From an uncultured Actinomycetota bacterium (lineage in GTDB: Bacteria > Actinomycetota > Actinomycetes > Prado026): DNA of 64,000 bases. How positions within the stretch are numbered: position 1 is the first letter of the stretch; each line of letters begins with the position of its first letter. Made by a program: the position numbers and the translations under genes. Under the pieces are notes generated by a model. The model was not told the DNA's origin. It did no database searches and worked only from the letters and a program-made list of their open reading frames with translations. The DNA lies in contig CAVQCJ010000003.1 in the NCBI GenBank assembly GCA_963711005.1, positions 160,119 through 224,118 of the forward strand. The letters run 5' to 3'. This document shows positions 22,228 to 57,769 of this stretch, one piece after another.

Positions 22228-22869
22228 GTGTCCGATCAGTTCACCCTCGTCCGTTCTGAGCCGTTCGACCGGTTCTCCGGGGGCGTACCTGGCCGCGGCC
22301 GGGTTCTTGGCCCGCTACTTCGGACGGACCCGGGATGCCCACGCCGCGGACCTGCGCACCTACCTGGCCTGGTGCACCGGCGAGCCGAACGTGGCCACCG
22401 CACCCTGCACATCATCGGCAAGGGCGGCAAGCCCGCCCTCATCCCGCTGCCGCCACCGGTGGCCCGAGCCTTGGACCTGGCCGCCGACCAGCGCAGCACC
22501 GGACCCCTGCTACTGACCCGGACCGGGGCCCGGATGGACCGCTACGCGGCCTCCCGGATCGTGCACCGCCTGGCCAAGAAGGCCGGGATCGAGCACCGGG
22601 TCGGCTGCCACTCCTTGCGCCACTCCTCCATCACCGCCGCCCTGGACGCCGGCGTCACCCTGCGCGACGTCCAGATCGCCGCCCGGCATGCCGACCCCCG
22701 CACCACCACCCGGTATGACCGGGCCCGCGGCAACCTGGACCGGCACGCCAACTCCATCGTCGCCGCCTTCATCGCCGGAGCCGCCTGGCAGCACGAGAAC
22801 CGGCATTCGGTGCGCTCCTGTCCAGGGGCCTCGCGCGGCGCGTGTGCCCCATGTCGCAACGGGACTTAG
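22228..22869 (+). pseudogene. tyrosine recombinase (phage-integrase family) remnant with internal deletion/frameshift
   Basis: The catalytic half is intact in ORF 22228..22869 (LHIIGKGGKPALIPLP..HSLRHSSITAALDAGVTLRDVQIAARHADPRTTTRYD). The N-terminal core-binding string AYLAAAGFLARYFGRTRDAHAADLRTYLAWC is in another frame (ORF 22028..22516). It abuts the catalytic half with roughly 100 codons missing. Confidence 0.7.
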
Positions 22870-43504: not shown

Positions 43505-46500
43505 TCACGCGTGTCTCCCTGCGTGCTCCGCTAGGCCTGACGAGATGAACGAGTCGAGCCGCCGGAGCCAACCAGTCGCACCGATCTGCGCGTACGTGGC
43601 CCGCGCGTGCTCCAGGTGCGGAGCAGCGTCGAAGGCACGGCCCTGGCTGGCCAGCCAACGAGCGAGGTCCTCCTCGGCCCGCGCGCTCCAACCCAGGGCA
43701 CCGAAGTCGGCGAGAGCCGCGACACCGGCGCGCAGGTCGGCCTCGACCGTGCGCGGCTCGTCGCCGCGGGCGGCTCCGACCAGGCCCTGCAGGTGGCGCA
43801 GGTGGGCCGCGACCGCCGTGGACAGCAACCCGGGCGCGGCACCGGCCACCGGCTCGAGCAGCCGTTCGGCGAGCGGCACGTCTGCGGCCGCGACGGCGGC
43901 GCGAACCAGCGGCGGCCAGAAGTGCATGAAGTCGTCCTCGAGACCGGACGCGCTGAGCTGGTGAGACAGCGTGGCCTCCGCAAGGGCGGCGGCGCCCTGC
44001 ACGTCGCCCTCGGTCTGCAGTCGCAACGCGTCGAGGGAGCCGCGGGCAGCCAGGTCCCAGGCGCTCAGCGCGGTCTCGATGTCGGGAAGCGGTGGCAATG
44101 GCTCGCCCTGCGCGTCGGCCAGGTAGGCATCGACCACGGCGAGTCCCCATCGCACGGTCGGCGTCGTCGCGGTCTCCACGGCCTCCTGGACCACCTGGCG
44201 CGACTCCGCCAGCCGGCCCGCGGACCACAGCGCCGAGGAGCAGTTGCCGGCCGCGTAGTCGGCCATGCCGGACACGCCGGCGCGTCGGGCCATGTCCCGA
44301 GCCTCGAAGAGAGCGTCGATCGCCGCCGGCAGGTCCCGGCTCATCAGGACGGTGCTCAGGTTGATCAGCGCGTGGGCAAGCGCGCCGGGAAGGTCGTGCG
44401 TCCGCGCGACGTCGGCGGCTCCCTCGTACAAGGCCCGGCTGATCCTGGGGCCACCCGTCGACTGGTAGCGACCACCCATGTTGATCATGGCCTTGGCCAG
44501 CTGCTCCGGATCGCCGACGGCTTCGGCCAGGAAGACCCGTCGCTCGACGTACCTGCCCGCCGCAGCCAGGTCCTCGAGCTCGAAGTATGAGTTGGCCAGC
44601 GGGCCGGCGAGGCGTAGCAAGGCCCGTTCGGAGTCGCGGATCCCCTCGAGCGCCTGCCAGCGCGGCTCGGCGAGCGCGATCACCCCAGCGAAGTCCGAGA
44701 GGATCTGCAGGGACAGGGCGGCGCTGCCCGCTGCGGCGCCCGCGTCGATCGGCCGCTCCAGCTCGTCGTACAGCTCCATGGCCGTACGGGCGTGAGCTGC
44801 GCCGCCGTCGTAGTCGCCGGCATCCTGGGCCGCCTCCCCGCAGGCGAAGTGCAGCCGCGCCCGGTCCTCGATGCCGGTGCTGCGGGCGAGCGCTGCCTCA
44901 AACCGGCGGCGTGCCTCGGCCGGCGATCCGAGCGCCTTCGCGCGGTTGCCGGCCCGCTCGAGCAACGCGCAGGCCCTCGGGACGAGGTCGCCCACGTCGG
45001 CGTCCGTGCTGCCCCCGGCATCGACGGCGTCGAGCAGGTGCTGCGCGATCACGACGGCAAGGTCGTCGCCCGGGTCCGGCTGTGTGGCCAGGAAGTCGGC
45101 TGCAGCGAGGTGCCGCTGCTTGCGATCACGCCGGGAAAGCGTGCCGTACGCGACCTGTCGCACCACGGCCTGCACGAACCTGAACTGCCCGCGCTCGGCC
45201 GAGAACCGGTCCTGCTGGACGGCGATGATCTCCTTACGCTGCAACGCGGACAGGGCTTCGTCGATGCCGGCCGGGTCGGAGCTGACTGCGGCGAGACCCG
45301 CCTTCGTGAACGACGAGCCGAGCACGCTGGCGTCGGCGACGACCGCTCGCTCGCTCGGCGACAGGGCGTCGAGCCGGGCGGCGACCAGCGCCTGCAACGA
45401 CGCGGGTGCACCGATCGCGGCAAGGTCGAGCTCGACGCCGTCAGCCGGTACGTAGTGCCCCTCGCGGGGTACCACCGCGTCCCGGTCGATCAGCGCCCGA
45501 ACGGTCTCGATGGCGAACAGCGGCACGCCCTCGGCGCGCGCGACGAGGGCGGTCCTGACCTGCGCCGGCAGCCCCACCACGAGCCCGTCGACCAGTGTCG
45601 CCATCGCCGCGTCGTCGAGCGGGTCCAGGCGGACCACGCTGGCCCGACGGCCCCCGAGCTCTGGTCGCCGCATCAACAGCTCGGGCCGGGCCAGGACGAG
45701 TACGAAGATCGGTGCGCGTGCCGTGGCCAGCATGGAGTCGAAGAAGTCCAGCAGCCCGTCGTCGGCGAACTGGGCGTCGTCGATCACGAGGACGACCGCG
45801 TTGCCGGCTTCGCTGAGCCGCTCGAGGAACGCCGTCCACGCCGAGAACAGGTCCTCGCGGGCGAAGCCGGCGCCCTGGCTCGCGCCCACGAGGGCGGCCA
45901 GCCGTGGCCGCAGCCAGTCGCGTTCCTCGGGTACCGGCACGAACGTCGCGAGGCCAGCCTCGAGGCCAGCGGTCACGGCCTCCCCCGAGTCGGCCTCCGT
46001 CAGCCCGAGGCGGGGCCGCAGCGCCTCGGCCAGCGCCCAGAACGCCACCCCGTCCCCGTACGACAGGCAGCGCCCACGATGCCAGCGCACCGTGGCCGTC
46101 AGCCCGTCGACGTACTTCTCGAACTCCCACGCCAGCCGGGACTTGCCCACGCCCGGCTCGCCGTCGACCACGACGAGGCGCGGGCGCGCGGACTCCTGCG
46201 TCGAGTGGAACAGCTCCTTGATCACCCGTACCTCACGGTCGCGCCCGGCCAGCGGTGCCTCGAGCCCGTCGACTCGCTGCCCGCCGCCCACCTCCGCGAC
46301 CACCGCTCGCGCCTGCCAGAGCCGGACCGACCCGGCCTTGCCCTTGAGCATGTGTTCGCCGGCATCCGCGTACGAGATCGCCGCGGCGGTCAGCGAGCGG
46401 GTGCCCTCGTCGACCCATACCGACCCGGCTTCGGCCACGGACTGGACCCGGGACGCCGTGTTCACCGCGTCGCCGGCCACCATGCCTTCCGCGGTGGCGC

Positions 46501-47047
46501 CGACCGTGACGGCTACCTCGCCCGTGACGACGCCGACCCGTACTGCCAGGTCGCGGGCGCCGAGGTCCTCGCCCATCGCCGAGATCGCCTGGACGAGCTC
46601 GAGACCGGCTCGTACCGCACGCTCGGCGTCGTCCTCGTGGCTGATCGGTACGCCCCACACGGCCATGACGGCGTCACCGATGAACTTCTCGACCGTCCCG
46701 CCGTACCGGCCGATGACCGTACGACACTCCGCGAAGTACCGGGACAGCAGCTCTCGGACCTCCTCAGCGTCGCGGGCCTCGGCCAGCGGCGTGAACCCGA
46801 CCAGGTCGGCGAACAGGACGGACGTGACTCGACGCTCGGCTACCGGCCGGTCGGGTGTGCGGCCCACTCCAGGTGCGCTTGGCGGGTCCCGGTCGAGCAC
46901 GGTGCCGCAGTGGCCGCAGAACCGCCCGCCCTCGTCGGCCGCCCCGCAGGACGGGCACGAGCGGACCAGCGCCATCGACGCGCCGCACTCGCGGCAGAAC
47001 CTGGTGCCGTCCGGCATGTCGGCGGCGCACTGGGGACAGGCTGTCAC
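43505..47047 (-). CDS. multidomain signalling protein: double zinc ribbon + class III adenylate/guanylate cyclase + AAA/STAND ATPase + TPR-like repeats
   Basis: ORF 43505..47428 trimmed to GTG 47047. Zinc ribbons CPQCAADMPDGTRFCRECG..CPSCGAADEGGRFCGHCG. Cyclase core VTSVLFADLVGFTPLAE..KFIGDAVMAVWG..TASRVQS. Walker A VVVDGEPGVGKSRLAWEF, Walker B VVLVIDDAQFAD. About 550 aa of Ala/Leu-rich helical repeats run to the C-terminus. Confidence 0.85.
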   Translation of the reverse strand: MTACPQCAADMPDGTRFCRECGASMALVRSCPSCGAADEGGRFCGHCGTVLDRDPPSAPGVGRTPDRPVAERRVTSVLFADLVGFTPLAEARDAEEVRELLSRYFAECRTVIGRYGGTVEKFIGDAVMAVWGVPISHEDDAERAVRAGLELVQAISAMGEDLGARDLAVRVGVVTGEVAVTVGATAEGMVAGDAVNTASRVQSVAEAGSVWVDEGTRSLTAAAISYADAGEHMLKGKAGSVRLWQARAVVAEVGGGQRVDGLEAPLAGRDREVRVIKELFHSTQESARPRLVVVDGEPGVGKSRLAWEFEKYVDGLTATVRWHRGRCLSYGDGVAFWALAEALRPRLGLTEADSGEAVTAGLEAGLATFVPVPEERDWLRPRLAALVGASQGAGFAREDLFSAWTAFLERLSEAGNAVVLVIDDAQFADDGLLDFFDSMLATARAPIFVLVLARPELLMRRPELGGRRASVVRLDPLDDAAMATLVDGLVVGLPAQVRTALVARAEGVPLFAIETVRALIDRDAVVPREGHYVPADGVELDLAAIGAPASLQALVAARLDALSPSERAVVADASVLGSSFTKAGLAAVSSDPAGIDEALSALQRKEIIAVQQDRFSAERGQFRFVQAVVRQVAYGTLSRRDRKQRHLAAADFLATQPDPGDDLAVVIAQHLLDAVDAGGSTDADVGDLVPRACALLERAGNRAKALGSPAEARRRFEAALARSTGIEDRARLHFACGEAAQDAGDYDGGAAHARTAMELYDELERPIDAGAAAGSAALSLQILSDFAGVIALAEPRWQALEGIRDSERALLRLAGPLANSYFELEDLAAAGRYVERRVFLAEAVGDPEQLAKAMINMGGRYQSTGGPRISRALYEGAADVARTHDLPGALAHALINLSTVLMSRDLPAAIDALFEARDMARRAGVSGMADYAAGNCSSALWSAGRLAESRQVVQEAVETATTPTVRWGLAVVDAYLADAQGEPLPPLPDIETALSAWDLAARGSLDALRLQTEGDVQGAAALAEATLSHQLSASGLEDDFMHFWPPLVRAAVAAADVPLAERLLEPVAGAAPGLLSTAVAAHLRHLQGLVGAARGDEPRTVEADLRAGVAALADFGALGWSARAEEDLARWLASQGRAFDAAPHLEHARATYAQIGATGWLRRLDSFISSGLAEHAGRHA

Positions 47048-47575
47048 TCGCTCGCCTTCCAGCTGGGTGGGCCGACCGACCCTGGCGGACCTGCCGGCCG
47101 ACGGGACCGTCACCGAAAGATATCGACCCGGTACCCCGCGGTGGCCCCTTTCCCCGACCCGCCCTGCCGGTGCGCAGCCCGCTCGGTCGTGATACCACGG
47201 CGGAGGCTGGAGTTGTTGAGCCTCGCGGATGGCGTGGGCGGCCGGGTCTTCTCCGACCTCGCGACGTGTGCGGTCTTCGTCGGCAGTGGCGTCAGAACCG
47301 CCATCCGTACGTACGCACTGGCTGGCAACCGGAGCGACGATCACCCTCATGACCGAACCGGCCTGGGTCTGACGAAGACTCGCGGGGCGACGGGGGCTTC
47401 GCCCATCGCTGACAGCGGCGAGCAGCATAGGCCCGGCCTCGCGCGAGGTCGGACCCGCGTGCTTTCGTCCGACGTCGCAGCGGCACCGGCGTCGAGGCGC
47501 TTTGAACCGTCCGCCGTCGCCGCCCGTTTCCAGGGCGACCAGGCATCACAGGCCTAAACGACCCGCGGAGGCGCC

Positions 47576-47958: not shown

Positions 47959-48867
47959 TCAGTCGAGGGCTGACTGGGTGCGGTGTCCGCTGCCCACGCG
48001 CACCGCCGCGGAGATGGACCGCTGCTCGGTGTCGTCCAGCCACCGCGCCACCGTGTAGAGGATCGCCGGCAGGAAGCTGACCTCGCCGCACACCCACAGA
48101 ATAGCGCCGGCGAGCTGCTGGTCGGCTTCCTGGGTCGACGCCGACACCAGCGATGTGTAGTAGGGGTACAGGTCGCGGCTGAACATGACCATGGTCATCG
48201 CGAGCACCACCATGACGGCATTGGTGGACACCAGCGCCAGCAGGCGGCCAGGAGGCTGCAGGACGGGACGGAAGGGGTAGGACCCGAACACCTGCAGCCA
48301 CAGGGCCACACCCAGCCCGACGAACGCTCCGTGCACCAGCCAGATGTGCACGAACTCGTTCCGCTCGGCCACGTCGAACGGACCTGGCAGGTGCCAGAAG
48401 ACCATGGCGATGTTGAAGGCAACGACGGACGTCCACGGCCTGCCCCAGAATTCCACCACGGCCGACGCGGCACCCCAACCGCCACCGACGGCTCGACCCG
48501 AACGGATCCGTTGGAGCAGCCGCCCGTATCTATGGGCCAGCGGGTCCGGGATCCCACGCAGCAGCGGGAGCCAGGGGGCACCCAGCACGATCAGCACCGG
48601 AGCGATGAAGGCGAGCAAGATGTGCTGGACGACGTGAGCCGTCAGGTAGGTGCCGGACCAGTAGTCCACCGGCGAGACGACGGCCAGCACCAGCACCAGC
48701 AGCCCGGCCCACCACAGCACCGCCTGACCCACCCAGGGGCGCAGCGGCCGACCCGCGCGTGCGATCGCCCGCAGCCGCCGCCGCAGCCCGCGGCCGTGCA
48801 CGGCCAGCACGATCGCGACCCCGATCAAGAACGGGTCGTAGGACCAGTGCTCGAAGGTGGCACGCAT
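47959..48867 (-). CDS. ctaG: cytochrome c oxidase assembly protein, Caa3_CtaG family
   Basis: ORF 47959..49026 trimmed to ATG 48867. Seven TM helices. HVVQHILLAFIAPVLIVLGAPW and HIWLVHGAF are as in Bacillus-type CtaG. Confidence 0.75.
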   Translation of the reverse strand: MRATFEHWSYDPFLIGVAIVLAVHGRGLRRRLRAIARAGRPLRPWVGQAVLWWAGLLVLVLAVVSPVDYWSGTYLTAHVVQHILLAFIAPVLIVLGAPWLPLLRGIPDPLAHRYGRLLQRIRSGRAVGGGWGAASAVVEFWGRPWTSVVAFNIAMVFWHLPGPFDVAERNEFVHIWLVHGAFVGLGVALWLQVFGSYPFRPVLQPPGRLLALVSTNAVMVVLAMTMVMFSRDLYPYYTSLVSASTQEADQQLAGAILWVCGEVSFLPAILYTVARWLDDTEQRSISAAVRVGSGHRTQSALD

Positions 48868-48935
48868 CAGCGTCGCCTCCGCACTCGGCTGCGCCGTCCA
48901 AGCCTTGCTCGGCGTCCCTCGGCGGTAGTCTGCCC

Positions 48936-49607
48936 ATGCCGCTGCGCCGTCGTCGGGCAGTCGGCTCGGCACGGCCCTCGACGGAAGGCGACTCGAGGTT
49001 GGCGAGCAACGGGCAGTGGTTCGCACGGCACCGCAAGGCGACGGTCGTCGCGGCAGCCATCGTCGTGCTGGCCCTCGCGGCTATAGTCGACTGGCCCCAC
49101 CGAGCAACGGCCGGGGACCTGCGCAGCGACTTCGCCACCTATGCGACGCAGGTATACGGCGACGTCCAGTCCTGCAGCCTCGAGGTCGAGCAGACGATCA
49201 GCGCGTACAACCAGATCACTGCAGGGGTCTCCACCCAGCGCGAGACCGCGTCGGCGATAGCCGCCCAGACCGCCCTGGACTGCACCCCGATGGGGAACAG
49301 CGCCATCCAGGACCTCGGCACGCTCGAGCCACCGCGGTCGCTGGCTCGATTCCATCTGGACGCCGGGGCGCAGCGTCTGTACGCCTGGTGCTTCTCCGAC
49401 GGCGTCGACGTCGCCCAGGAGATCGAGCACCTGCTCGCCAGGCCTGGCGACGCCGCGCTGCTCGCGCGGCTGCACGCGGAGCTGTCCGACATGCAGATCC
49501 AGGGCACCTCTGCGCAGCAGTCGTTCGACCGTGCCGCGGCGAGCCTGGGCGCTGCACCCGTCTCGTTCGCTCTCGACGCCGTCCGGCCGAGCGTCCTGGT
49601 CGGGTGA
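48936..49607 (+). CDS. hypothetical membrane-anchored protein
   Basis: ATG 48936 inside ORF 48759..49607. TM anchor VVAAAIVVLALAAIV, then ~180 helical residues. Divergent from ctaG. Confidence 0.4.
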   Translation: MPLRRRRAVGSARPSTEGDSRLASNGQWFARHRKATVVAAAIVVLALAAIVDWPHRATAGDLRSDFATYATQVYGDVQSCSLEVEQTISAYNQITAGVSTQRETASAIAAQTALDCTPMGNSAIQDLGTLEPPRSLARFHLDAGAQRLYAWCFSDGVDVAQEIEHLLARPGDAALLARLHAELSDMQIQGTSAQQSFDRAAASLGAAPVSFALDAVRPSVLVG

Positions 49608-49759: not shown

Positions 49760-50431
49760 TCACGACAGAACCGAGAACAGGACAAACACCACGACGGACA
49801 CCAGAGCGACGAAGGCGACGAACACCTTGGCCCCCAGAGCGGAACCGACGAACATGGTCCGCTCCGGCGAGTCAACACCCGGTCCTTCGGCCGAGACGAC
49901 CCAGCGCACTCGCAAGGACCGTGCGAGGAGCGTCTCCAGCCAGTAGGCGGTGCCCAGGCAGTAGACGGCGAAGACGGGCATGATCGCGACGTAGCACGAG
50001 GCGAACCCCGACGACCCGGGATAGAACCCGGTCCGCGTCATCCCCCAGAGCTGGAGTCCAGCGGCCAGCAAGAACGCGCCTGCAGCGACCCCGGTCGCCA
50101 CCCGCCAGTCGGCGGAGTTCGCCTGGCCCCGCATCATCAGCCGGGTGTACCACCAGAAGAGTGCGGCGCCTCCGATGGTCAGGGCCAGCACCGGGATGCT
50201 GATGAAGTCAGACGGTCGCTGTCCCGGGCTGCGCCACAGTCCCGAGGAGTTCAGTGAGTGCAGGTAGAAGTAGGCGAACGCACCGGATCCGAACATCATG
50301 GCCGACAGCGCGACGAACAGGCGCGAGCCGGACCAGTACGCGCCACGGGCCGAGGCGCGCTCGATCGCCTGGTTGTGCGTCCGGTCGTCCACGGGTCCAT
50401 CGGCCGGCGCGCCGGCCACGACCTCGGTCAT
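49760..50431 (-). CDS. polytopic membrane protein in the subunit III position of the oxidase operon (CoxIII-like, tentative)
   Basis: ORF 49760..50431. Five to six TM helices. The start is 1 nt after the subunit I stop. Confidence 0.5.
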   Translation of the reverse strand: MTEVVAGAPADGPVDDRTHNQAIERASARGAYWSGSRLFVALSAMMFGSGAFAYFYLHSLNSSGLWRSPGQRPSDFISIPVLALTIGGAALFWWYTRLMMRGQANSADWRVATGVAAGAFLLAAGLQLWGMTRTGFYPGSSGFASCYVAIMPVFAVYCLGTAYWLETLLARSLRVRWVVSAEGPGVDSPERTMFVGSALGAKVFVAFVALVSVVVFVLFSVLS

Positions 50432-50432
50432 C

Positions 50433-52379
50433 TCAGCTCACCCCTTCAGGCTGCGGGAGGGCGCCACTGCGGTAGCCGACGGCCATCGGCCCCGATCCTG
50501 TGCCGTACTCGTAGGGGCCGGAGACGACCGTGGGGATCCGGTCGAAGTTGTCCCGGGCGGGCGGGGTCGAGGTCATCCATTCCAGCCCACGCGAACCCCA
50601 CGGGTTCGTCGCCGGCGTGCTCGGTGGCGGGTCGATGACCGTGCTCTTGAGGAAGTTGAAGATGAAGACGAGCATCGACAGGCCGATCAGGTAGGCCGAG
50701 ACCGACACCCACACGTTGAGTGCCTGCAGCGACGCGGCGTACTCGAAGACACGGCGCGGCATCCCCAGCTCCCCGATCGCGAACAACGGCAGGAAGGTGG
50801 AGTTGAAGAAGACGAACAGGGTCCAGAAATGGACCTGTCCGAGCCGCTTGTTGAGCATCCGACCGGTCATCTTCGGCAGCCAGTAGTAGAGGCCGGCGAA
50901 GAAGAAGAACATGTAGCCACCCATGATCGTGTAGTGGAAGTGCGACATGACGAAGAAGCTGCCGTGCGCCACCGAGTCGGTCGGGACGTCCGACAGGAAC
51001 ACGCCGGAGATGCCGCCGATGAGGAAATTGAACAGACCGCCCAGCACGAAGAGCATGGGCACGGTCAGCCTGATCCGGGCGCGCCACAGCGTCCCGATCG
51101 CGCACAGGAAGATGATCCCGGTGGGGATCGAGATCAGCTCGGTCGTGAGCATCACCACCGGCCGCATGTCCGGGTTGATCCCGCTGACGAACAGGTGGTG
51201 CTGCCAGACGAAGAAGCTGAGCAGCCCGACCCCAACCATTCCGGCCACGAACGTCCGGTACCCGAAGGCCGGCTTGCGGGTGAACACGGGCAGCAGCTCC
51301 GCTGCGATGCCGAAGCCTGGAAGCGCGAGGATGTACACCTCGGGGTGCCCAAAGAACCAGAACAGGTTCTCCCACAGGTACGGGCTGCCGCCGTGCTCGA
51401 CGTCGAAGAGGGCGGTCTGCACCGTGCGGTCCATCAACGACAGGTAGCAGGCCAGCACGAGGATGGGTGCCGCGAGGGCCATGAGCAGCGCGGTGACCAG
51501 CATCGACCAGACGAACAGTGGGACCCGGGACCAGGTCATCCCGGGGGCTCGATAGTTGATGACGGTCACGACGATGTTGAACCCGCCGACGATCATCGAC
51601 AGGGCCATCAGCCCGAACGCGACCAGGTAGGCGTCCTGGCCCTGGGTGGCCTCGATCGACAGCGGTGCGTAGCCGGTCCAACCGGTCGGGAACCCGCCGA
51701 CGATCAGCCCGGACAGCAGGATCAGGAACGCCACGGGGGTCAACCAGAACGACAGCGCCTCCAGCCGCGGGAACGCCATCCGGCGCGAGCCGATCATCAG
51801 CGGCACGAAGTAGTTCCCGAACGGCCCGAGGATCGCCGACGTCATCATCATCATCATCATCGTGCCGTGCTCGCCGACGACCTCGAGGTACTTCCCTGGC
51901 GGGAACACATGCCGTGTCGGCGACAAGAGCTCGGTCCTGATGGCCAGCGCGAAGAGGCCGCCGACGAAGAAGTACGCGAGCATCGCGACCAGGTACTGCA
52001 CGCCAACGACCTTGTGGTCGAGGGTGTACCGGAAGTACATTCCCCGACTGCGCCTGGTCTCGTGCAGCGGCTCGGGCTGCTTGCCGATCAGCTTCTGGAC
52101 CGGGTAGGTCAAGCCACCGACGCCGGCCAGCCAGCCGACGGCGCCGAACAGGTAGCCCAGTGTCACGGCGTAGTCGTTCTGCCCCATCCCCTGGATCTGC
52201 TGGTCGTTCTGCCCGATCCAGCGACCCAGGTAGAAGCCGAGCACGTACCCGATGGCGATGCCGATCAGACCGAAGAGCACGCCGGGCTGCTGCCACCACG
52301 GGCGACCGGCCGAGTCCACGGGTGGGTGAGCCGTCCCGCCCTCGTCCAGGCCTGCGGCGGCGGTCGTGTCCGTTGCCAT
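50433..52379 (-). CDS. ctaD: heme-copper oxidase subunit I (divergent A-like) with a ~115-aa N-terminal two-TM extension
   Basis: ORF 50433..52379. WFFGHPEVYILALPGFG, VWQHHLFVSG, VMSHFHYTIMGG and GMPRR. The canonical core starts at YTLDHKVVGVQYL. Confidence 0.9.
   Translation of the reverse strand: MATDTTAAAGLDEGGTAHPPVDSAGRPWWQQPGVLFGLIGIAIGYVLGFYLGRWIGQNDQQIQGMGQNDYAVTLGYLFGAVGWLAGVGGLTYPVQKLIGKQPEPLHETRRSRGMYFRYTLDHKVVGVQYLVAMLAYFFVGGLFALAIRTELLSPTRHVFPPGKYLEVVGEHGTMMMMMMTSAILGPFGNYFVPLMIGSRRMAFPRLEALSFWLTPVAFLILLSGLIVGGFPTGWTGYAPLSIEATQGQDAYLVAFGLMALSMIVGGFNIVVTVINYRAPGMTWSRVPLFVWSMLVTALLMALAAPILVLACYLSLMDRTVQTALFDVEHGGSPYLWENLFWFFGHPEVYILALPGFGIAAELLPVFTRKPAFGYRTFVAGMVGVGLLSFFVWQHHLFVSGINPDMRPVVMLTTELISIPTGIIFLCAIGTLWRARIRLTVPMLFVLGGLFNFLIGGISGVFLSDVPTDSVAHGSFFVMSHFHYTIMGGYMFFFFAGLYYWLPKMTGRMLNKRLGQVHFWTLFVFFNSTFLPLFAIGELGMPRRVFEYAASLQALNVWVSVSAYLIGLSMLVFIFNFLKSTVIDPPPSTPATNPWGSRGLEWMTSTPPARDNFDRIPTVVSGPYEYGTGSGPMAVGYRSGALPQPEGVS
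51843..51860 (-). repeat. (ATG)6 trinucleotide repeat encoding MMMMMM inside subunit I
   Basis: Plus strand CATCATCATCATCATCAT. Confidence 0.95.
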
Positions 52380-52394: not shown

Positions 52395-53360
52395 CTACGA
52401 GCCGGGTGGCGCGGGCGGGAGCCCGGAGTCGGCTGGAGGTGGCGGGTCCTCCGCTGGGTCGTAGTAGCCGCCGTCCGTCTGCGGGATGTAGAAGTCCGCG
52501 TACGGCGGGAGCTGCGGGATCAGGTCCAGATGCAGTGCCAGCTGCTGGCCGAGCCACGCGTCGAACGCCTCGTGCGTGACCACATGACCCGTGGCCGTCA
52601 TGGCCCCGTGGTACAGCCCGCACAGCTCCGCGCACCGGATGTTGATCGGCCCGATGGCTTCGGGGGTGGCGAAGGCGATGTTGTTGGCTCCCGGGTTCGC
52701 GTCGGCTTTGAGCCCGAGATTCACCGCCCAGAACGAATGGATCACATCGAGCGAGGTCACGTCGAACTGGACCGCCTGGCCGACCGGCAGCTCCAGGTCG
52801 GCAGTCTCCACGCCCGCGTACTGCGGGAACCGGTAGGTCCAGCGCCACTGCTGGCCGATCACCTGGACCACCAGCAGCTTGCTGTCCTTGGCCGTGGCCG
52901 AGAACCCGGCCGGTGTCCAGATGGGCGCCGCACCGGAGCCTGTACCGGCGCCTGCGTCCGTGACGAGTTCGAACGTCCCGAAGAAGAAGAGCGCGATGAC
53001 CGTCACCGAGGTGATCGTCAGCCACGACGCCTGGAACCCTCGGTGACCACGGATCGGCGGCCCGTCCTCGATGTCCTCGATCGGGGTGTCCGATGGGATC
53101 CGCCAGTTCTTGACGGCGTAGCCGACGTACACCCAGATGAACAGGAAGACCGGAGTAGCGACCGTCGCCAGCACCGCGTTGTCGAACTGCTGGGACTTGG
53201 CCTGGTTCGAGTCGGTCCCCGGTGGCAGGTGCGGACCCAGGACGAAGTAGACGAGCGGCATGAAGACCGCTGAGAGCACGAGCCAGATCAGACCGATCCG
53301 CATCAGGTGCTGACGGTCCGACGGCTGGGTCCGCTCCGCGGGCCGATCGGCGGCCGCCAT
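52395..53360 (-). CDS. ctaC: cytochrome c oxidase subunit II (CuA cupredoxin domain)
   Basis: ORF 52395..53549 trimmed to ATG 53360, which overlaps the upstream stop (ATGA). DVIHSFW and CAELCGLYHGAM form the CuA ligand motif. N-terminal TM helices. Confidence 0.85.
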   Translation of the reverse strand: MAAADRPAERTQPSDRQHLMRIGLIWLVLSAVFMPLVYFVLGPHLPPGTDSNQAKSQQFDNAVLATVATPVFLFIWVYVGYAVKNWRIPSDTPIEDIEDGPPIRGHRGFQASWLTITSVTVIALFFFGTFELVTDAGAGTGSGAAPIWTPAGFSATAKDSKLLVVQVIGQQWRWTYRFPQYAGVETADLELPVGQAVQFDVTSLDVIHSFWAVNLGLKADANPGANNIAFATPEAIGPINIRCAELCGLYHGAMTATGHVVTHEAFDAWLGQQLALHLDLIPQLPPYADFYIPQTDGGYYDPAEDPPPPADSGLPPAPPGS

Positions 53361-54028
53361 CACGCCACCACCTTCATGAAGCCGTTCATGTAGCCGAGCG
53401 TCGACATCGGCCCGCCGAACCCCAGCGGGAATGCCAGAGCGCACGGCACGAAGCACTGCCAGACGTAGGTTCCCGGGTCCCCAGTACGGATGGTGAAGGT
53501 GATCGTGTTGTGGTCGGCGGACAAAGGGCACGGTGCCGGGTCGGTGCACGGGTTCTTGGCGTCGGCAGACACCCCCGGGAAGACGACCGAGACACCCAGC
53601 GCCGGGATCGTGAAGCTGTGACCGATGCCGTCACCGACGTTCCCGTTGTAGATGCTGACGTCCTTGCCGTTGATGTTCTCCGTCCCGCCGACCGTCCCCG
53701 CCACCTGGTTCATGAAGGGGTTGCGCAGCGGGCTGCCCGTGTCGAACTGGTAGACGGTGAAGTGGACCAGGCTGTGCGCCGGCAGCTGGAGCATCGTCGT
53801 GTGCACCCAGGTGTCGCCCTGCTTGATCAGGTAGGACACCCAGGTGGGCTCCGGCTCACGGTTGTAGGCCGGCACCGTCTGCATGGTCACGTTGACCTGG
53901 CCGGCGCCGCTCGAAGCAGCTGCGACCGTCGGTGGATAGGCCACGAGGTAGGCGGCCACGCCGACGATGATGGCCACCGCCACGACCAGCGCGCCCAAGA
54001 CGATGGCCGTCCGTCCCGATTTCGTCAC
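53360..54028 (-). CDS. membrane-anchored cupredoxin-like protein
   Basis: ORF 53360..54028. N-terminal TM helix AIVLGALVVAVAIIVGVAAYLV. Beta-rich domain with GIGHSFTIP ... YVWQCFVPCALAFPLGFGGPMSTLGYM (H, C-x3-C, M). Confidence 0.55.
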   Translation of the reverse strand: MTKSGRTAIVLGALVVAVAIIVGVAAYLVAYPPTVAAASSGAGQVNVTMQTVPAYNREPEPTWVSYLIKQGDTWVHTTMLQLPAHSLVHFTVYQFDTGSPLRNPFMNQVAGTVGGTENINGKDVSIYNGNVGDGIGHSFTIPALGVSVVFPGVSADAKNPCTDPAPCPLSADHNTITFTIRTGDPGTYVWQCFVPCALAFPLGFGGPMSTLGYMNGFMKVVA

Positions 54029-54071: not shown

Positions 54072-55004
54072 TCAGGTCCATGGCCGGACCAGGACGTCCA
54101 GGACGATCACGAGGGAGAGCACGCTCAGATACGTGATCGACCAGTGGAACAGCCGCATCGAGGCCGGGTCGGTGCCGCGCAGCACGCGGGCCCGCAGCCT
54201 GGCCGCCTCCCGCAGGAAGACCGCCCCGAGCAGGACCGCGGCCAGGCCGTACCCCACGTCGAGCCCCGCGACGGGCCACAGCAGGAGCGACACCGCGACC
54301 ACGGCCCAGGAGTAGACCCAGATCTGGCGGGCCACGACCCGGTCCGACGCGACGACCGGGAGCATCGGGACACCCGCAGCCGCGTAGTCGTCGCGGAACC
54401 GCATGGCCAGCGCCCAGAAGTGCGGCGGCGTCCAGGCGAAGATGATGCCGAACAACACCACCGGGGTCCAGGCGAGGGAGTCGGTCACGGCCGCCCAGCC
54501 AATGAGCACCGGCATGCAGCCGGCTGCGCCCCCCCAGACGATGTTCTGCGCGGTGCGCCGCTTGAGTACCTTCGTGTACACCAGGACGTAGAAGGCGATC
54601 GCGGCCACGGTGAGCGCGGCAGCGAGCCCGTTCGTCGCTGACCACATGGCCACGGTGGCGATCAGCCCGAGGACCGACCCGAACACCAGCGCACCCGACG
54701 GGGAGACGGTGCCCGCGGTGAGGGGGCGGCCAGCCGTCCGTCTCATCAGCGCATCGATGTCACGGTCCAGGTAGCAGTTCAGCGCATTCGCGCTGGCGGC
54801 TGCGCAAGCACCGGCGAGCAGGGTGCCGAACGCCAGCCGCGGGGCTGGCACGCCTCCGGCCGCCAGCACCATGGCGGGAACCGTCGTCACCAGCAGGAGC
54901 TCGATGATCCGCGGCTTGGTCAGGGCGACGTACGCGCCGAGGACCGCCAGCGGCGGCCGGTGACCCAGAACGGTCTCGGGCGCAGCGAACGTCACGCACC
55001 TCAC
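54072..55004 (-). CDS. ctaB: protoheme IX farnesyltransferase (heme O synthase)
   Basis: ORF 54072..55004. YVALTKPRIIELLLVTT, ANALNCYLDRDIDALMRRT and WTPPHFWALA are UbiA-family CtaB/CyoE signatures. Confidence 0.9.
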   Translation of the reverse strand: MRCVTFAAPETVLGHRPPLAVLGAYVALTKPRIIELLLVTTVPAMVLAAGGVPAPRLAFGTLLAGACAAASANALNCYLDRDIDALMRRTAGRPLTAGTVSPSGALVFGSVLGLIATVAMWSATNGLAAALTVAAIAFYVLVYTKVLKRRTAQNIVWGGAAGCMPVLIGWAAVTDSLAWTPVVLFGIIFAWTPPHFWALAMRFRDDYAAAGVPMLPVVASDRVVARQIWVYSWAVVAVSLLLWPVAGLDVGYGLAAVLLGAVFLREAARLRARVLRGTDPASMRLFHWSITYLSVLSLVIVLDVLVRPWT

Positions 55005-55178: not shown

Positions 55179-55784
55179 TCAGGACTTCGGTGCCAGCTGG
55201 GCGAGCAGCTCGGAGAGCTCAGCAGCAGTCGTCGGCCCGATGACGCGCGCGGCCACCCGGCCGGTCCGGTCGACGATCAGCGTGCTGGGGATCGCGCTCG
55301 CTGGGACCAACCGGAGACTGCCGAGAAGGGCGCCGTCGCTGTCGACCAGGCTCGGGTAGGGCACGTGGTTCGAGGCCATGAAGGTGCGCCCCGCGGAGTC
55401 GCTGTCCTGCTCATCGATCCCCACGAAGGTGACGCCTCGGTCAGCGGTCGCCCGCGACACCGCCACCAGGGCCGGGACCTCGCTGCGGCAGGGGTAGCAC
55501 CACGAGGCCCAGCTGTTCAGGACGACCACCTGGCCGCGCAGGTCCGTCATCGACAGGCGAGCCCCGGCCAGGGTCGTCCCGGACAGTTCGTTCACCGCTG
55601 GACGTGAACCGACCTTCCAGGTGGTCACCCCCACCACGGTCCCGCCGGTACCGGGTGTCGGACTCGCGTCCGGAGCGGGCGTGACGGTCGAGCATGCGGC
55701 CAGCCCGGCGAGCAGCACACCTAGGACGAGGTGACTGGCCACGCGTCGTGCGCCGGCATGTCTGCTCAGGCACGAGACTCGCAC
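55179..55784 (-). CDS. TlpA/ResA-like thiol-disulfide oxidoreductase lipoprotein
   Basis: ORF 55179..55784. Lipobox LLAGLAAC. Thioredoxin motif WASWCYPCRSE. Confidence 0.8.
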   Translation of the reverse strand: MRVSCLSRHAGARRVASHLVLGVLLAGLAACSTVTPAPDASPTPGTGGTVVGVTTWKVGSRPAVNELSGTTLAGARLSMTDLRGQVVVLNSWASWCYPCRSEVPALVAVSRATADRGVTFVGIDEQDSDSAGRTFMASNHVPYPSLVDSDGALLGSLRLVPASAIPSTLIVDRTGRVAARVIGPTTAAELSELLAQLAPKS

Positions 55785-55882
55785 CGACGCAGAGTACCTG
55801 TCGCGGCGGCCCGTGCTCGGAGGGCCGCCGAGATGGCCGGTGCACCTGTGGGTGGACAGGACTGCGCCCTACTCTCGTCTGC

Positions 55883-56569
55883 GTGACGTCAGCTGAGTCC
55901 ACCCGGAGCCCGATCAGCATCACGGTCACGGCGCTCCTGGTGATCGTCTGCTGCCTGCTGCTCGGCAGGTGGCAGCTCGGCCGGGTCGACCGTCCCGTGG
56001 ACGGGTACTCCGCCGAGCCAGCCGCGGTCACGCTGGACGCTCTGGTGCCCGCCGGTGCGTCCGTGAGTCCCGGTGACGTCGCCCGCCAGGTGACGCTGAC
56101 CGGCACCTACGACGGGCGCGCGCAGTCGACCGACCCCGGGCACACCGTGGCTGGGCTGACCGTGTACTGGGTCGTCACGCCGTTGGTGCTGCCCGACCGG
56201 AGCCGGGTACAAGTCGTCCGCGGCTGGGTGACGGCGCCCGGCCAGCCGCTCGCCCAACCCCCGGCCGGAGCCGTCACGCTCACGGCCCGGCTCGAGCAGG
56301 GACAGCTCGCAGGCGGTCAGGGTCCGTGGCGGCTGACGTCCGGCTACCTGGTGCGTACCGCCCAATCCCCTCCGGATCCGCTCTCGCTGCAGCCCGTCCC
56401 GGTGCCTCCGCCGCCGAACCAGGCCCCTGGGGAGTTCCACCTACAGAACGCGATCTATGTCACGCAGTGGTGGCTACTCGCAGTGATCATGGTGCTGTTC
56501 TGGTGGCGGCTGGTCCGTGCCCACCGCACGCAGCCGGACGACGCCGCGCCGGTTGGCGCCCGCGGCTGA
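55883..56569 (+). CDS. SURF1-family cytochrome oxidase biogenesis protein
   Basis: 3' part of ORF 55694..56569 from GTG 55883. An N-terminal TM helix with LLLGRWQLGR and a C-terminal HLQNAIYVTQWWLLAVIMVLFWW match the SURF1/Shy1 layout. Confidence 0.75.
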   Translation: MTSAESTRSPISITVTALLVIVCCLLLGRWQLGRVDRPVDGYSAEPAAVTLDALVPAGASVSPGDVARQVTLTGTYDGRAQSTDPGHTVAGLTVYWVVTPLVLPDRSRVQVVRGWVTAPGQPLAQPPAGAVTLTARLEQGQLAGGQGPWRLTSGYLVRTAQSPPDPLSLQPVPVPPPPNQAPGEFHLQNAIYVTQWWLLAVIMVLFWWRLVRAHRTQPDDAAPVGARG

Positions 56570-56573
56570 GGGT

Positions 56574-57356
56574 TCAGGAACCGAACGAGCTGGCGACCAG
56601 AGCGATGCCATGCCCCCAGGACGTCAGCGGGCCGGCCGGCAGGTAGGCCGTACCGGCGGCCGTGTGGTCGATCATCGGGATGGCGACGTAGCGTTCCCGA
56701 CCCTGCGGATCGATGAAGTAGACCACCGAGGTGTGGACGATGTCCGCGTCAGGGCTGGGAGCCGAGACAGCGACGTTGTACGCGTGCCAGACCGCCTCGA
56801 GACTTGACACGTCTCCGGTCAGGAAGTGCCAGGTCGGAACGGTGTTCAACCGCTGCGCGTTCGAATAGGCAGCCATGTCGGCGACGCTGTGGTGATAGGC
56901 GTTGACGTTGACGGCCAGGAACACCACGTCCGAGGACGGGCCGAGCTCGCGGTACGCGTCGATGAACTCTTGCGACACGATGGGACACACATCGGTGCAG
57001 TGCGGATCCATGAACTCCAGCACGACCGGATGGCCTCGGAGACCGGCCAGGGCGAGGGTGCGACCGTCCTGGTCGACGAGGGTGAAGCCGGGGGCCTGCG
57101 CTGCCGGCACGGGCGACAGCGCCATCAGGTCAGCCAGGGAGGACGGGACGTCCGCGGGTATCCCGGTGGCCCGAGGCTGGCCGGTCGCCGCGGCTTGCGA
57201 CAACGCGTCCTTGACCTGCTCCCGGTGCCGGACCGCGAGTGCGGCGAACACAACCGCGCCACACGCCGCGAGGACGACGAGAGTCACCAGGGTCTTCGAG
57301 CGAGACGCCCGTGCCGGCGTCTCGTCACGCTCCAACGTCTTGACCTCGTCTGTCAC
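56574..57356 (-). CDS. SCO1/SenC-family copper chaperone
   Basis: ORF 56574..57458 trimmed to GTG 57356. TM anchor, then FMDPHCTDVCP (CxxxC) and a downstream His (AYHHS). Confidence 0.8.
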   Translation of the reverse strand: MTDEVKTLERDETPARASRSKTLVTLVVLAACGAVVFAALAVRHREQVKDALSQAAATGQPRATGIPADVPSSLADLMALSPVPAAQAPGFTLVDQDGRTLALAGLRGHPVVLEFMDPHCTDVCPIVSQEFIDAYRELGPSSDVVFLAVNVNAYHHSVADMAAYSNAQRLNTVPTWHFLTGDVSSLEAVWHAYNVAVSAPSPDADIVHTSVVYFIDPQGRERYVAIPMIDHTAAGTAYLPAGPLTSWGHGIALVASSFGS

Positions 57357-57769
57357 GCAATCATCGTGACTGCTGCGCTGCTCGTGGGCAACCGTTCGCA
57401 GACCTCGGTCAACCGACCTCGGCCATGATCTCGTCGGAGACGTCGTAGTAGCCCACACGTTCTGAGCGTCGTCCTGTCCTCGAGCGCCTTGGCCAGGCGG
57501 AGCACCTTCGGCGCGATGCTGGCCGGACCACCTGGCGTCAGGCTCGAGCCGTCGAGCCGCCCTTGCGACGCTCGTACGACTCTCCGTGGGACAGAGCTTG
57601 CTCGCCTAGACGCCCTTCAGGCCATCGCTTGGGCTCGCGCGGTGACCGGTGACCTAGCGGCGATCGACGTCTTCCTTCGGATCGTGGACAAGCTGCCGGA
57701 CTCCTCAGGCTCAACACCTCGCCGAACACGAGCACAACCGTGCTGAGGACGGCTCGAACCAGCTTGTGG

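Follow-up and report, generated by a model that had tools for sequence, protein, structure and literature searches.

Within a 64,000-nucleotide window (the whole stretch of DNA analysed, from contig CAVQCJ010000003.1 of an uncultured Actinomycetota bacterium), we found a gene for subunit I (COX1, 648 aa) of an A-family heme-copper O2 reductase, at 50433..52379 on the minus strand, in which both residues of a much-discussed pair at the D channel's mouth are exchanged: the aspartate equivalent to Asp-132 of Rhodobacter sphaeroides is an arginine and the gate asparagine equivalent to Asn-139 is a glutamate. As judged from the residues kept and changed, the D channel is remodelled and not lost, and the new element appears to be this coupled and convergent rebuild of its mouth; a paired swap of the D132R/N139E type was not found in the accessible literature. 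Two further peculiarities, namely the replacement of the K-channel lysine and an N-terminal pair of added transmembrane (TM) helices, are shared with a published "2TM" clade, in which the D channel has been called "essentially conserved" (PMC8239418; 10.1101/2020.03.01.968255). Our finding corrects that statement, which is false for the present subclade. The protein is probably part of a working O2 reductase, aa3-like and CuA-dependent, that belongs to the 2TM clade lacking the channel lysine (Lys-less) and has its D-channel entry relocated.

Asp-132 and Asn-139 are the most-studied pair in the debate on oxidase gating and the coupling of proton pumping, and the evidence on them has so far come from engineered mutants. 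A natural family with a carboxylate at the gate and an arginine at the mouth, fixed in hundreds of actinobacterial soil species, is an evolutionary test of the models, in a clade that is biochemically almost unexplored. Should the enzyme behave as an ordinary aa3 oxidase, the known clade would simply have gained a divergent member.

The D-channel mouth

COX1 was aligned (MAFFT) with bovine COX1 (residue numbering checked), Escherichia coli CyoB (100% identical to database records) and Mycobacterium smegmatis CtaD (taken from the HMMER alignment), while HMMER alignments to the CtaD structures of M. smegmatis and M. tuberculosis agree on the motif register. This register is secure because the MAFPR and IPTG flanks are identical; with three independent alignments concurring, mis-registration of the motifs was ruled out. 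The D-channel entrance, as read from the translation and the alignments, is GSRRMAFPRLEA (residues 197-208, 51756..51791, minus strand), in which R200 takes the place of the D-channel aspartate (R. sphaeroides D132, bovine D91) and E207 that of the gate asparagine (R. sphaeroides N139, bovine N98). At the K site of helix VIII, translated as TTELISIPTGIIFLC (residues 412-426, 51102..51146, minus strand), the channel lysine (R. sphaeroides K362, bovine K319) is I423. The original prediction, made from the letters of the DNA, had named exactly these changes, i.e. Asp to Arg, an altered Asn and Lys to Ile, and all of them stood up in the alignments.

The substitutions are not chance, because they are conserved throughout the 120 listed homologues (59-100% identity, all ~650 aa), which was also the outcome of the ortholog check proposed with the original prediction. 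Position 200 is R in 119/120 of these and in 78/81 genomes, position 207 is E in 120/120 and in 81/81 genomes, and position 423 is I, V or L in 120/120, the family entrance motif being M-I-G-[SA]-[KR]-R-[MV]-A-[FY]-P-R-[ILM]-E-A. A genome scan with one genome per species returned 486 loci, of which the best 80, used for all neighbourhood counts, are without exception from Actinomycetota. The carriers among these best 80 belong to Acidothermaceae, Streptosporangiaceae (including Trebonia), Acidimicrobiales (including the isolate Acidiferrimicrobium sp. IK) and Pseudonocardiales, and are mainly metagenome-assembled genomes (MAGs) from soil (acid soil), peat and bog. The oxidase is a widespread terminal oxidase among acid-soil and peat Actinomycetota, and cultured carriers exist. 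Sequencing-run matches to the COX1 gene were weak and partial (share at most 0.17) and came from soil and freshwater metagenomes, with no RNA evidence among them.

Beyond the entrance, the inner D channel is retained, with E347, N189 (N121), N268 (N207), S210 (S142), Y129 (Y33) and S261 all in place; this lining is conserved across the 120 listed homologues, with N or Q at position 189, and is, that position apart, invariant also in the 81 genomes. The HPEVY motif (residues 345-349, 51333..51347, minus strand) supplies the CuB ligand H345, the D-channel glutamate E347 and the predicted cross-link tyrosine Y349, and is found in 120/120 listed homologues. The heme a ligands H171 and H482, the heme a3 ligand H480 and the CuB ligands H345, H394 and H395 are likewise retained, the six histidines being conserved in 119-120/120 and the active site invariant also in the 81 genomes, and T420 (T359) and the arginine pair R542/R543 are kept as well. 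That the catalytic core is preserved, as had been proposed, is therefore well supported by the alignments. The accompanying claim of an enzyme without any standard proton entrance fared less well: the Asp/Asn pair and the Lys are indeed absent, but the D-channel interior and E347 are intact and a conserved carboxylate, E207, stands at the gate. Some other features of the family were noted in passing. The position of Asn-121, the second gate asparagine, is Gln in 26/81 genome copies, and the whole D-channel constriction therefore varies in the clade. The Asp of the Mg/Mn site (Asp-412) is Gly in every family member, with His-411 retained (COX1 residues 472-473, HG), and E170, immediately before a heme a ligand, and Q393, immediately before the CuB His pair, are family-specific.

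The two exchanges at the channel mouth go together. Among ~250 diverse COX1 sequences the 132/139 pair was D/N in 211 and R/E in 11, and Glu at 139 never occurred together with Asp at 132. These sequences are kin, hence the counts do not represent independent events, and the stronger argument lies in the number of origins. Neighbour joining (506 columns, 100 bootstraps) recovered the actinobacterial R/E family as monophyletic (100) and nested in the 2TM Lys-less clade (100), as sampled by the clade's representatives among the COX1 sequences used, with P0122, P0123 and P0154, all D/N, as its nearest relatives. P0122 and P0123, with 45-47% identity to COX1, have two extra TM helices and no channel Lys, and keep both Asp and Asn. 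A second R/E lineage consists of P0220 and P0391, the only two sequences of this kind found, which are 818-aa archaeal-type COX1-COX3 fusions with the motif G-T-K-R-L-A-F-P-K-L-E-S and likewise Lys-less. These two formed a monophyletic pair (100) lying among D/N relatives of archaeal type (100), and grouped with the actinobacterial family in 0 replicates. Since the two R/E lineages never group, the swap arose at least twice, to judge by this tree, both times on a Lys-less background.

Only four family-invariant residues occur in both R/E lineages but in neither sister group, namely R200, E207, M176 and H157. M176 corresponds to bovine I66 and yeast I67, a D-channel residue, so that three of the four convergent positions lie in the D channel; yeast oxidase is crippled by I67N (PMC7196763). 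H157, in loop I-II, is invariant in the family and convergently common to the archaeal-type R/E lineage. We also note that the locus of P0220 (L081, 8001-12355, ENA ERZ1746109) has the gene order COX1-3, an 87-aa open reading frame (ORF), the sulfocyanin SoxE, COX2 and UbiA.

Family assignment and the 2TM clade

The product of 50433-52379 matches Pfam PF00115 (COX1) over residues 125-563 with an E-value (E) of 7.8e-132, and 14 TM helices are predicted, the N-terminal pair included. Its nearest solved relatives (HMMER) come from the bcc-aa3 supercomplexes of Mycobacterium and Corynebacterium, whose CtaD subunits matched at E 4e-129 to 1e-123, with other A-type chains next (A-type range E 1e-129 to 1e-95) and B-type ba3 at ~1e-5. 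An AlphaFold2 model built with 40 homologues (predicted template-modelling score, pTM, 0.80) gave target-normalised TM-scores of 0.83-0.87 against A-family structures in Foldseek. COX1 scores under two NCBIfam cut-offs, i.e. those of TIGR02891 (CtaD_CoxA; 573.5 vs 670.75) and NF050116 (actinobacterial aa3 subunit I; 479.7 vs 880), and is therefore a divergent A-family member. On this evidence it is classed as an A-family O2 reductase subunit, representing neither a new heme-copper oxidase (HCO) family nor new chemistry. The alignment and profile classification that had been suggested as checks accordingly upheld the motif register and returned the A family, not the B type. The idea of a distinct HCO subfamily survives in a reduced form: within the A family the protein does fall into a distinct subfamily, as its sub-cut-off scores indicate, but this is the already published 2TM clade.

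Other classes were considered as well. A B-type or C-type enzyme was ruled out by the A-family similarity in sequence and structure and by the D-channel residues present, and the nitric oxide reductase (NOR) families by the presence of the active-site Tyr and the three CuB His. A quinol oxidase was ruled out by subunit II (COX2; 52395..53360, minus strand; Pfam COX2 E 3.5e-14), a protein of 321 aa from the ATG at 53360 with two TM helices and a CuA cupredoxin domain, in which the CuA ligands H208, C243, E245, C247, H251 and M254 are retained (at least 95% conserved), so that the oxidase is not of the quinol type. The Mycobacterium and Corynebacterium CtaD proteins (6adq, 7rh5, 7q21; ~41% identity, E 4e-129) have the 12-helix core and the active site in common with COX1, but carry the canonical D132, N139 and K362 and have no 2-TM extension, in all of which COX1 differs. 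They receive their electrons from QcrC and, unlike COX1, pass the NF050116 cut-off.

The 2TM group was described as a basal A-family COX1 group by Degli Esposti et al. 2021 (Front Microbiol, PMC8239418, Suppl. Tables S1/S3), preceded by a preprint (bioRxiv 10.1101/2020.03.01.968255). Published traits of the group are the two added N-terminal TM helices and a helix-VI HPEVY (PMC8239418; 10.1101/2020.03.01.968255), replacement of the K-channel Lys by I, L, V or F and of the entry Glu of subunit II, by Q in Actinobacteria, and an associated caa3_CtaG gene (PMC8239418). Its membership is given as "Chloroflexi, Acidimicrobia and other Actinobacteria", together with the rus-operon oxidases of acidophilic iron oxidisers (PMC8239418). 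Every one of these traits was found here: the extra helix pair, HPEVY, I423, Q110 in COX2 at the place of the K-channel entry Glu (Glu-101; Q, S or A across genomes), and caa3_CtaG at 47959-49026. COX1 is thus, by these sequence traits, a member of the described '2TM Chloroflexi & Actinobacteria' K-less clade, and the loss of the K channel together with the 2-TM extension amounts to a rediscovery of that clade.

The N-terminal extension comprises residues 1-117 (52029..52379, minus strand; AlphaFold2, hydropathy and translation) and makes the N-terminus of COX1 ~110 residues longer than that of bovine COX1 and ~92 longer than that of M. smegmatis CtaD. Its two helices, at residues 34-56 (52212-52280, minus strand) and 69-87 (52119-52175, minus strand), were modelled by AlphaFold2 at a predicted local distance difference test score (pLDDT) of 84-91, and hydropathy peaks at residues 33-51 and 72-90, in agreement with the two-helix extension first proposed. 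Invariant in the extension are G44, Y45, G48, G52, Y76, G82, G86 and G88.

At the K site, the signature of COX1 (Y-A-I-T-C-E-G-F-G-S, with Q in COX2) lies near the published Y-A-I-T-V-E-G-S-G-S with Q, as listed for Acidithrix and "Actinobacteria bacterium 15TR583" (Trebonia) (PMC8239418). Members of the clade include the rus-operon CoxA of Acidithiobacillus ferrooxidans and the COX1 proteins of Acidithrix, Acidimicrobium and Trebonia, to which the present system is also alike in having a cupredoxin gene beside coxB. It differs from its 2TM relatives in the exchange of Asp-132 for Arg and Asn-139 for Glu in this subclade, whereas P0122 and P0123 keep D/N, and the rus-operon COX3/COX4 and cupredoxin are not sequence-homologous to their counterparts here. 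Another Lys-less A-type lineage was met in a separate actinobacterial COX1 group of ~545 aa (P0454, P0466 and P0473; e.g. Nocardioidaceae), which has no 2-TM extension, Lys replaced by Leu, a TTELIS motif, and Asp-132 and Asn-139 both kept.

Proton supply and its possible explanations

In the explanation that we consider probable, a relocated D-channel entry in a functional O2 reductase, the host would be an actinobacterial relative of Acidothermaceae from acid soil or peat, and the oxidase is encoded by a four-gene cassette with its own assembly genes, consisting of a cupredoxin-fold protein (p222), COX2, COX1 and a COX3-like subunit (p223). Proton supply would be rewired, not abolished. The entry carboxylate would have shifted from the II-III loop, where R200 now stands, one turn up helix III to E207, and R200 together with K/R199 would probably serve as counter-charge for E207, which would leave the mouth with a net charge close to that of the wild type. 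A direct analogue exists among engineered enzymes: in R. sphaeroides, D132N nearly abolishes turnover, N139D raises it but uncouples pumping, and in the D132N/N139D double mutant, which is active, full pumping is restored (PMC7196763). Asn-139 forms with Asn-121 the constriction just above Asp-132 (PMC4321873). The double mutant, like the present protein, has lost the carboxylate of the loop and gained one at the Asn-139 gate, and we therefore take R200/E207 to be a relocation, in nature, of the carboxylate into the gate, with pumping presumably kept. The cases differ in that the loop residue here is Arg (after Lys or Arg) and not Asn, and the new acid Glu and not Asp, and in that the present swap occurs in nature, is fixed in hundreds of species and is set on a Lys-less background.

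Of the canonical K pathway, both Lys-362 and the subunit II residue Glu-101 are gone, as across the whole clade, and the pathway's stand-in is presumed to be a route of Ser, Thr and water (S417, T420, Y349 and possibly E414/E361) like the Lys-less B-type pathway; alternatively, all protons might enter through the D pathway. E414 was present in 82/159 Lys-less vs 0/101 Lys-bearing COX1 sequences and S417 in 129/159 vs 1/101, each across several unrelated lineages, with P0122, P0123, P0220 and P0454-type sequences among them, a distribution that hints at a shared K-pathway replacement among Lys-less oxidases. Thermus thermophilus ba3 functions without the channel Lys by means of a Ser/Thr/Tyr K-analogue pathway, but has neither a D channel nor the helix-VI Glu, unlike COX1, and its similarity to COX1 is marginal. 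The spacing of S417 and T420 in COX1 is, as we take it, the same as that of S309 and T312 in ba3. The ba3 residue S309 is cited in PMC11214002. Electrons would pass via CuA, probably from the co-encoded, membrane-anchored p222 and not from a soluble cytochrome c.

A number of points weigh against this relocated-entry explanation. The pair of basic residues that stands at the entrance could make it harder for protons to be captured. In the model enzymes, a carboxylate at 139 uncouples when Asp-132 is kept (PMC7196763), and coupling is therefore uncertain here. The contact between R200 and E207 and the position of E414 are predictions, the Ser/Thr/water substitute for the K pathway is a plausible proposal, and the neighbour-joining tree is a rough distance tree. 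Within the window there is, furthermore, no c-type cytochrome or CXXCH protein, no Rieske protein and no CtaA gene, for which reason the electron donor and the heme type had to be deduced indirectly.

A real, though minority, possibility is a non-pumping O2 reductase with scalar charge separation only, in which the Glu at Asn-139 would uncouple as N139D does and the loss of the K pathway would lower turnover. Such an enzyme would suit high-potential donors of low driving force, O2 scavenging or pH homeostasis in acid habitats. In three model oxidases, N139D, N131D and N99D count as 'ideal' uncoupling mutations (PMC7196763), the clade has ties to acidophilic iron oxidisers and their very small driving force (PMC8239418; 10.1101/2020.03.01.968255), the carriers are chiefly acid-soil, peat and bog MAGs plus the isolate Acidiferrimicrobium sp. 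IK, and the cupredoxin fold of p222 is closest to rusticyanin. Yet D132N/N139D pumps again (PMC7196763), and Asp-132 is likewise gone here, while a strictly conserved inner D channel with E347 exceeds the needs of scalar chemistry. It is also conceivable, if rather unlikely, that the Arg-Glu pair is an evolved alternative D gate that arose at least twice in single-channel oxidases for acid habitats or high-potential donors, with p222 bearing a new Cys-x3-Cys/Met copper site. The K pathway would then each time have been lost already and a membrane cupredoxin gene have stood adjacent; all chemical, and perhaps also pumped, protons would run through a charge-compensated D channel, as an adaptation to acidic habitats or to high-potential donors, e.g. 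in Fe(II)-linked chains.

A different substrate or function, as raised by the original prediction, finds little in its favour. Reduction of e.g. NO or peroxide would call for fewer reductive-phase protons and make the K pathway dispensable, and K362M R. sphaeroides oxidase retains peroxidase-type activity. We nevertheless hold such chemistry to be very unlikely, since the invariant residues include the heme ligands, all three CuB His and the cross-link Tyr, the CuA ligands of COX2 are kept, and genes for CuA, CuB and heme O/A assembly surround the cassette. NOR families lack the active-site Tyr and have altered FeB/CuB ligation (PMC11214002), and the related Lys-less rus-operon enzyme of A. 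ferrooxidans is described as an aa3-type cytochrome c oxidase whose activity was measured (PMC4059628). As for a decaying or non-functional paralogue with drifted channel residues, to which the scores under the curated NCBIfam cut-offs might point, it has next to no probability and is effectively refuted by conservation: there are 486 species-level genome matches, the family alignment has a mean column identity of 72% and does not vary at all in hundreds of positions, the substituted residues are invariant too, and the ORF, with a G+C content at third codon positions (GC3) of 0.93, sits in an intact, translationally coupled operon.

The cassette and its neighbors

The gene order p222-COX2-COX1-p223 is kept in 78-80/80 genomes. 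The start of COX2 overlaps the stop of p222 (TGATG), the spacer between COX2 and COX1 is 15 nt and contains AGAGG, and only 1 nt separates the COX1 stop from p223; from this arrangement the cassette is read as translationally coupled. Two whole paralogous cassettes were observed on separate contigs (L014, L018) in the MAG MFD03323.bin.2.84. The outer two genes of the cassette encode strictly co-occurring, uncharacterised subunits that deserve to be flagged, namely a cupredoxin with unusual ligands and a divergent COX3-like protein.

The former, p222 (53360..54028, minus strand; AlphaFold2/Foldseek), is a predicted membrane-anchored cupredoxin-fold protein lying upstream of COX2 in 78/80 loci. 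It matched no Pfam or NCBIfam family, whole-alignment scans of p222 and p223 against Pfam and NCBIfam to E 5 gave nothing consistent, and the p222 profile gave nothing significant against PDB sequences. Homologues number 3078; of the 120 listed, the only one with anything like a functional name bears the JGI label 'oxidase subunit 2'. The model (pLDDT 81) has an N-terminal TM helix followed by a cupredoxin domain (Greek-key beta-sandwich), and the top Foldseek matches were rusticyanin (E 1.2e-5, probability 1.00), auracyanin, AcoP (E 1e-3) and CuA domains. The invariant residues H137, C161, C167, C192-x3-C196, M208 and M214 are placed like cupredoxin ligands, but correspond neither to the type-1 set (His, Cys, His, Met) nor to that of CuA (His, Cys-x3-Cys-x3-His-x2-Met); the p222 loop reads C-x3-C-x11-M-x5-M, without the second His, and a metal site, if any, is therefore not a standard type-1 or CuA site.

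In its N-terminal anchor, its cupredoxin domain and the position of its gene directly upstream of coxB, p222 is alike to AcoP, rusticyanin and sulfocyanin (SoxE), cupredoxins found beside or working with the oxidases of acidophiles, although it has no detectable sequence homology to any of the three, and hhalign found no homology between p222 and the L081 sulfocyanin. Homologues of AcoP, the "acidophile cytochrome c oxidase partner" of A. ferrooxidans, are encoded within cytochrome c oxidase gene clusters (PMC4059628), and at the archaeal-type R/E locus L081 the SoxE gene is situated directly upstream of COX2. Because of these two gene arrangements, p222 is put forward as a candidate for the oxidase's partner or electron donor.

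The latter, p223 (49760..50431, minus strand), is designated a short (~5-TM) divergent COX3-like subunit on the basis of its position and weak profile similarity. It follows directly after COX1 in 79/80 loci and has no Pfam match. The best PDB matches of its profile were mainly COX3 chains, at a non-significant E of 0.08-0.3, and its motif FAYFYL[HR]S resembles FWAFYHSS.

Assembly functions are attributed to several of the surrounding genes. The heme O synthase CtaB (54072..55004, minus strand; NCBIfam NF003349, E 2e-125, above cut-off) is nearby in 70/80 loci, and the caa3_CtaG-type CuB assembly factor (47959..49026, minus strand; Pfam PF09678, E 2.7e-42), whose start codon is uncertain, in 36/80. 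Further genes are those of a TlpA/ResA-like thioredoxin (55179-55784, minus strand; Pfam AhpC-TSA/Redoxin), SURF1 (55694-56569, plus strand; Pfam SURF1), which is near the cassette in only 12/80 loci, and SCO1/SenC (56574-57458, minus strand; Pfam SCO1-SenC). As listed, the SURF1 ORF and the TlpA-like ORF share ~90 nt at the latter's 5' end, and at least one of the two starts is probably situated further downstream. No second oxidase was found within the window. Adjoining the oxidase cluster is the gene of a 1307-aa protein (43505-47428, minus strand) with double zinc ribbon, adenylate/guanylate cyclase, AAA ATPase and TPR domains, which accompanies the cassette in 0/80 related loci. Lastly, a 213-aa ORF of the phage integrase family, possibly a fragment, was identified at 22228-22869 on the plus strand, in a region (18-37 kb) of lower coding density.

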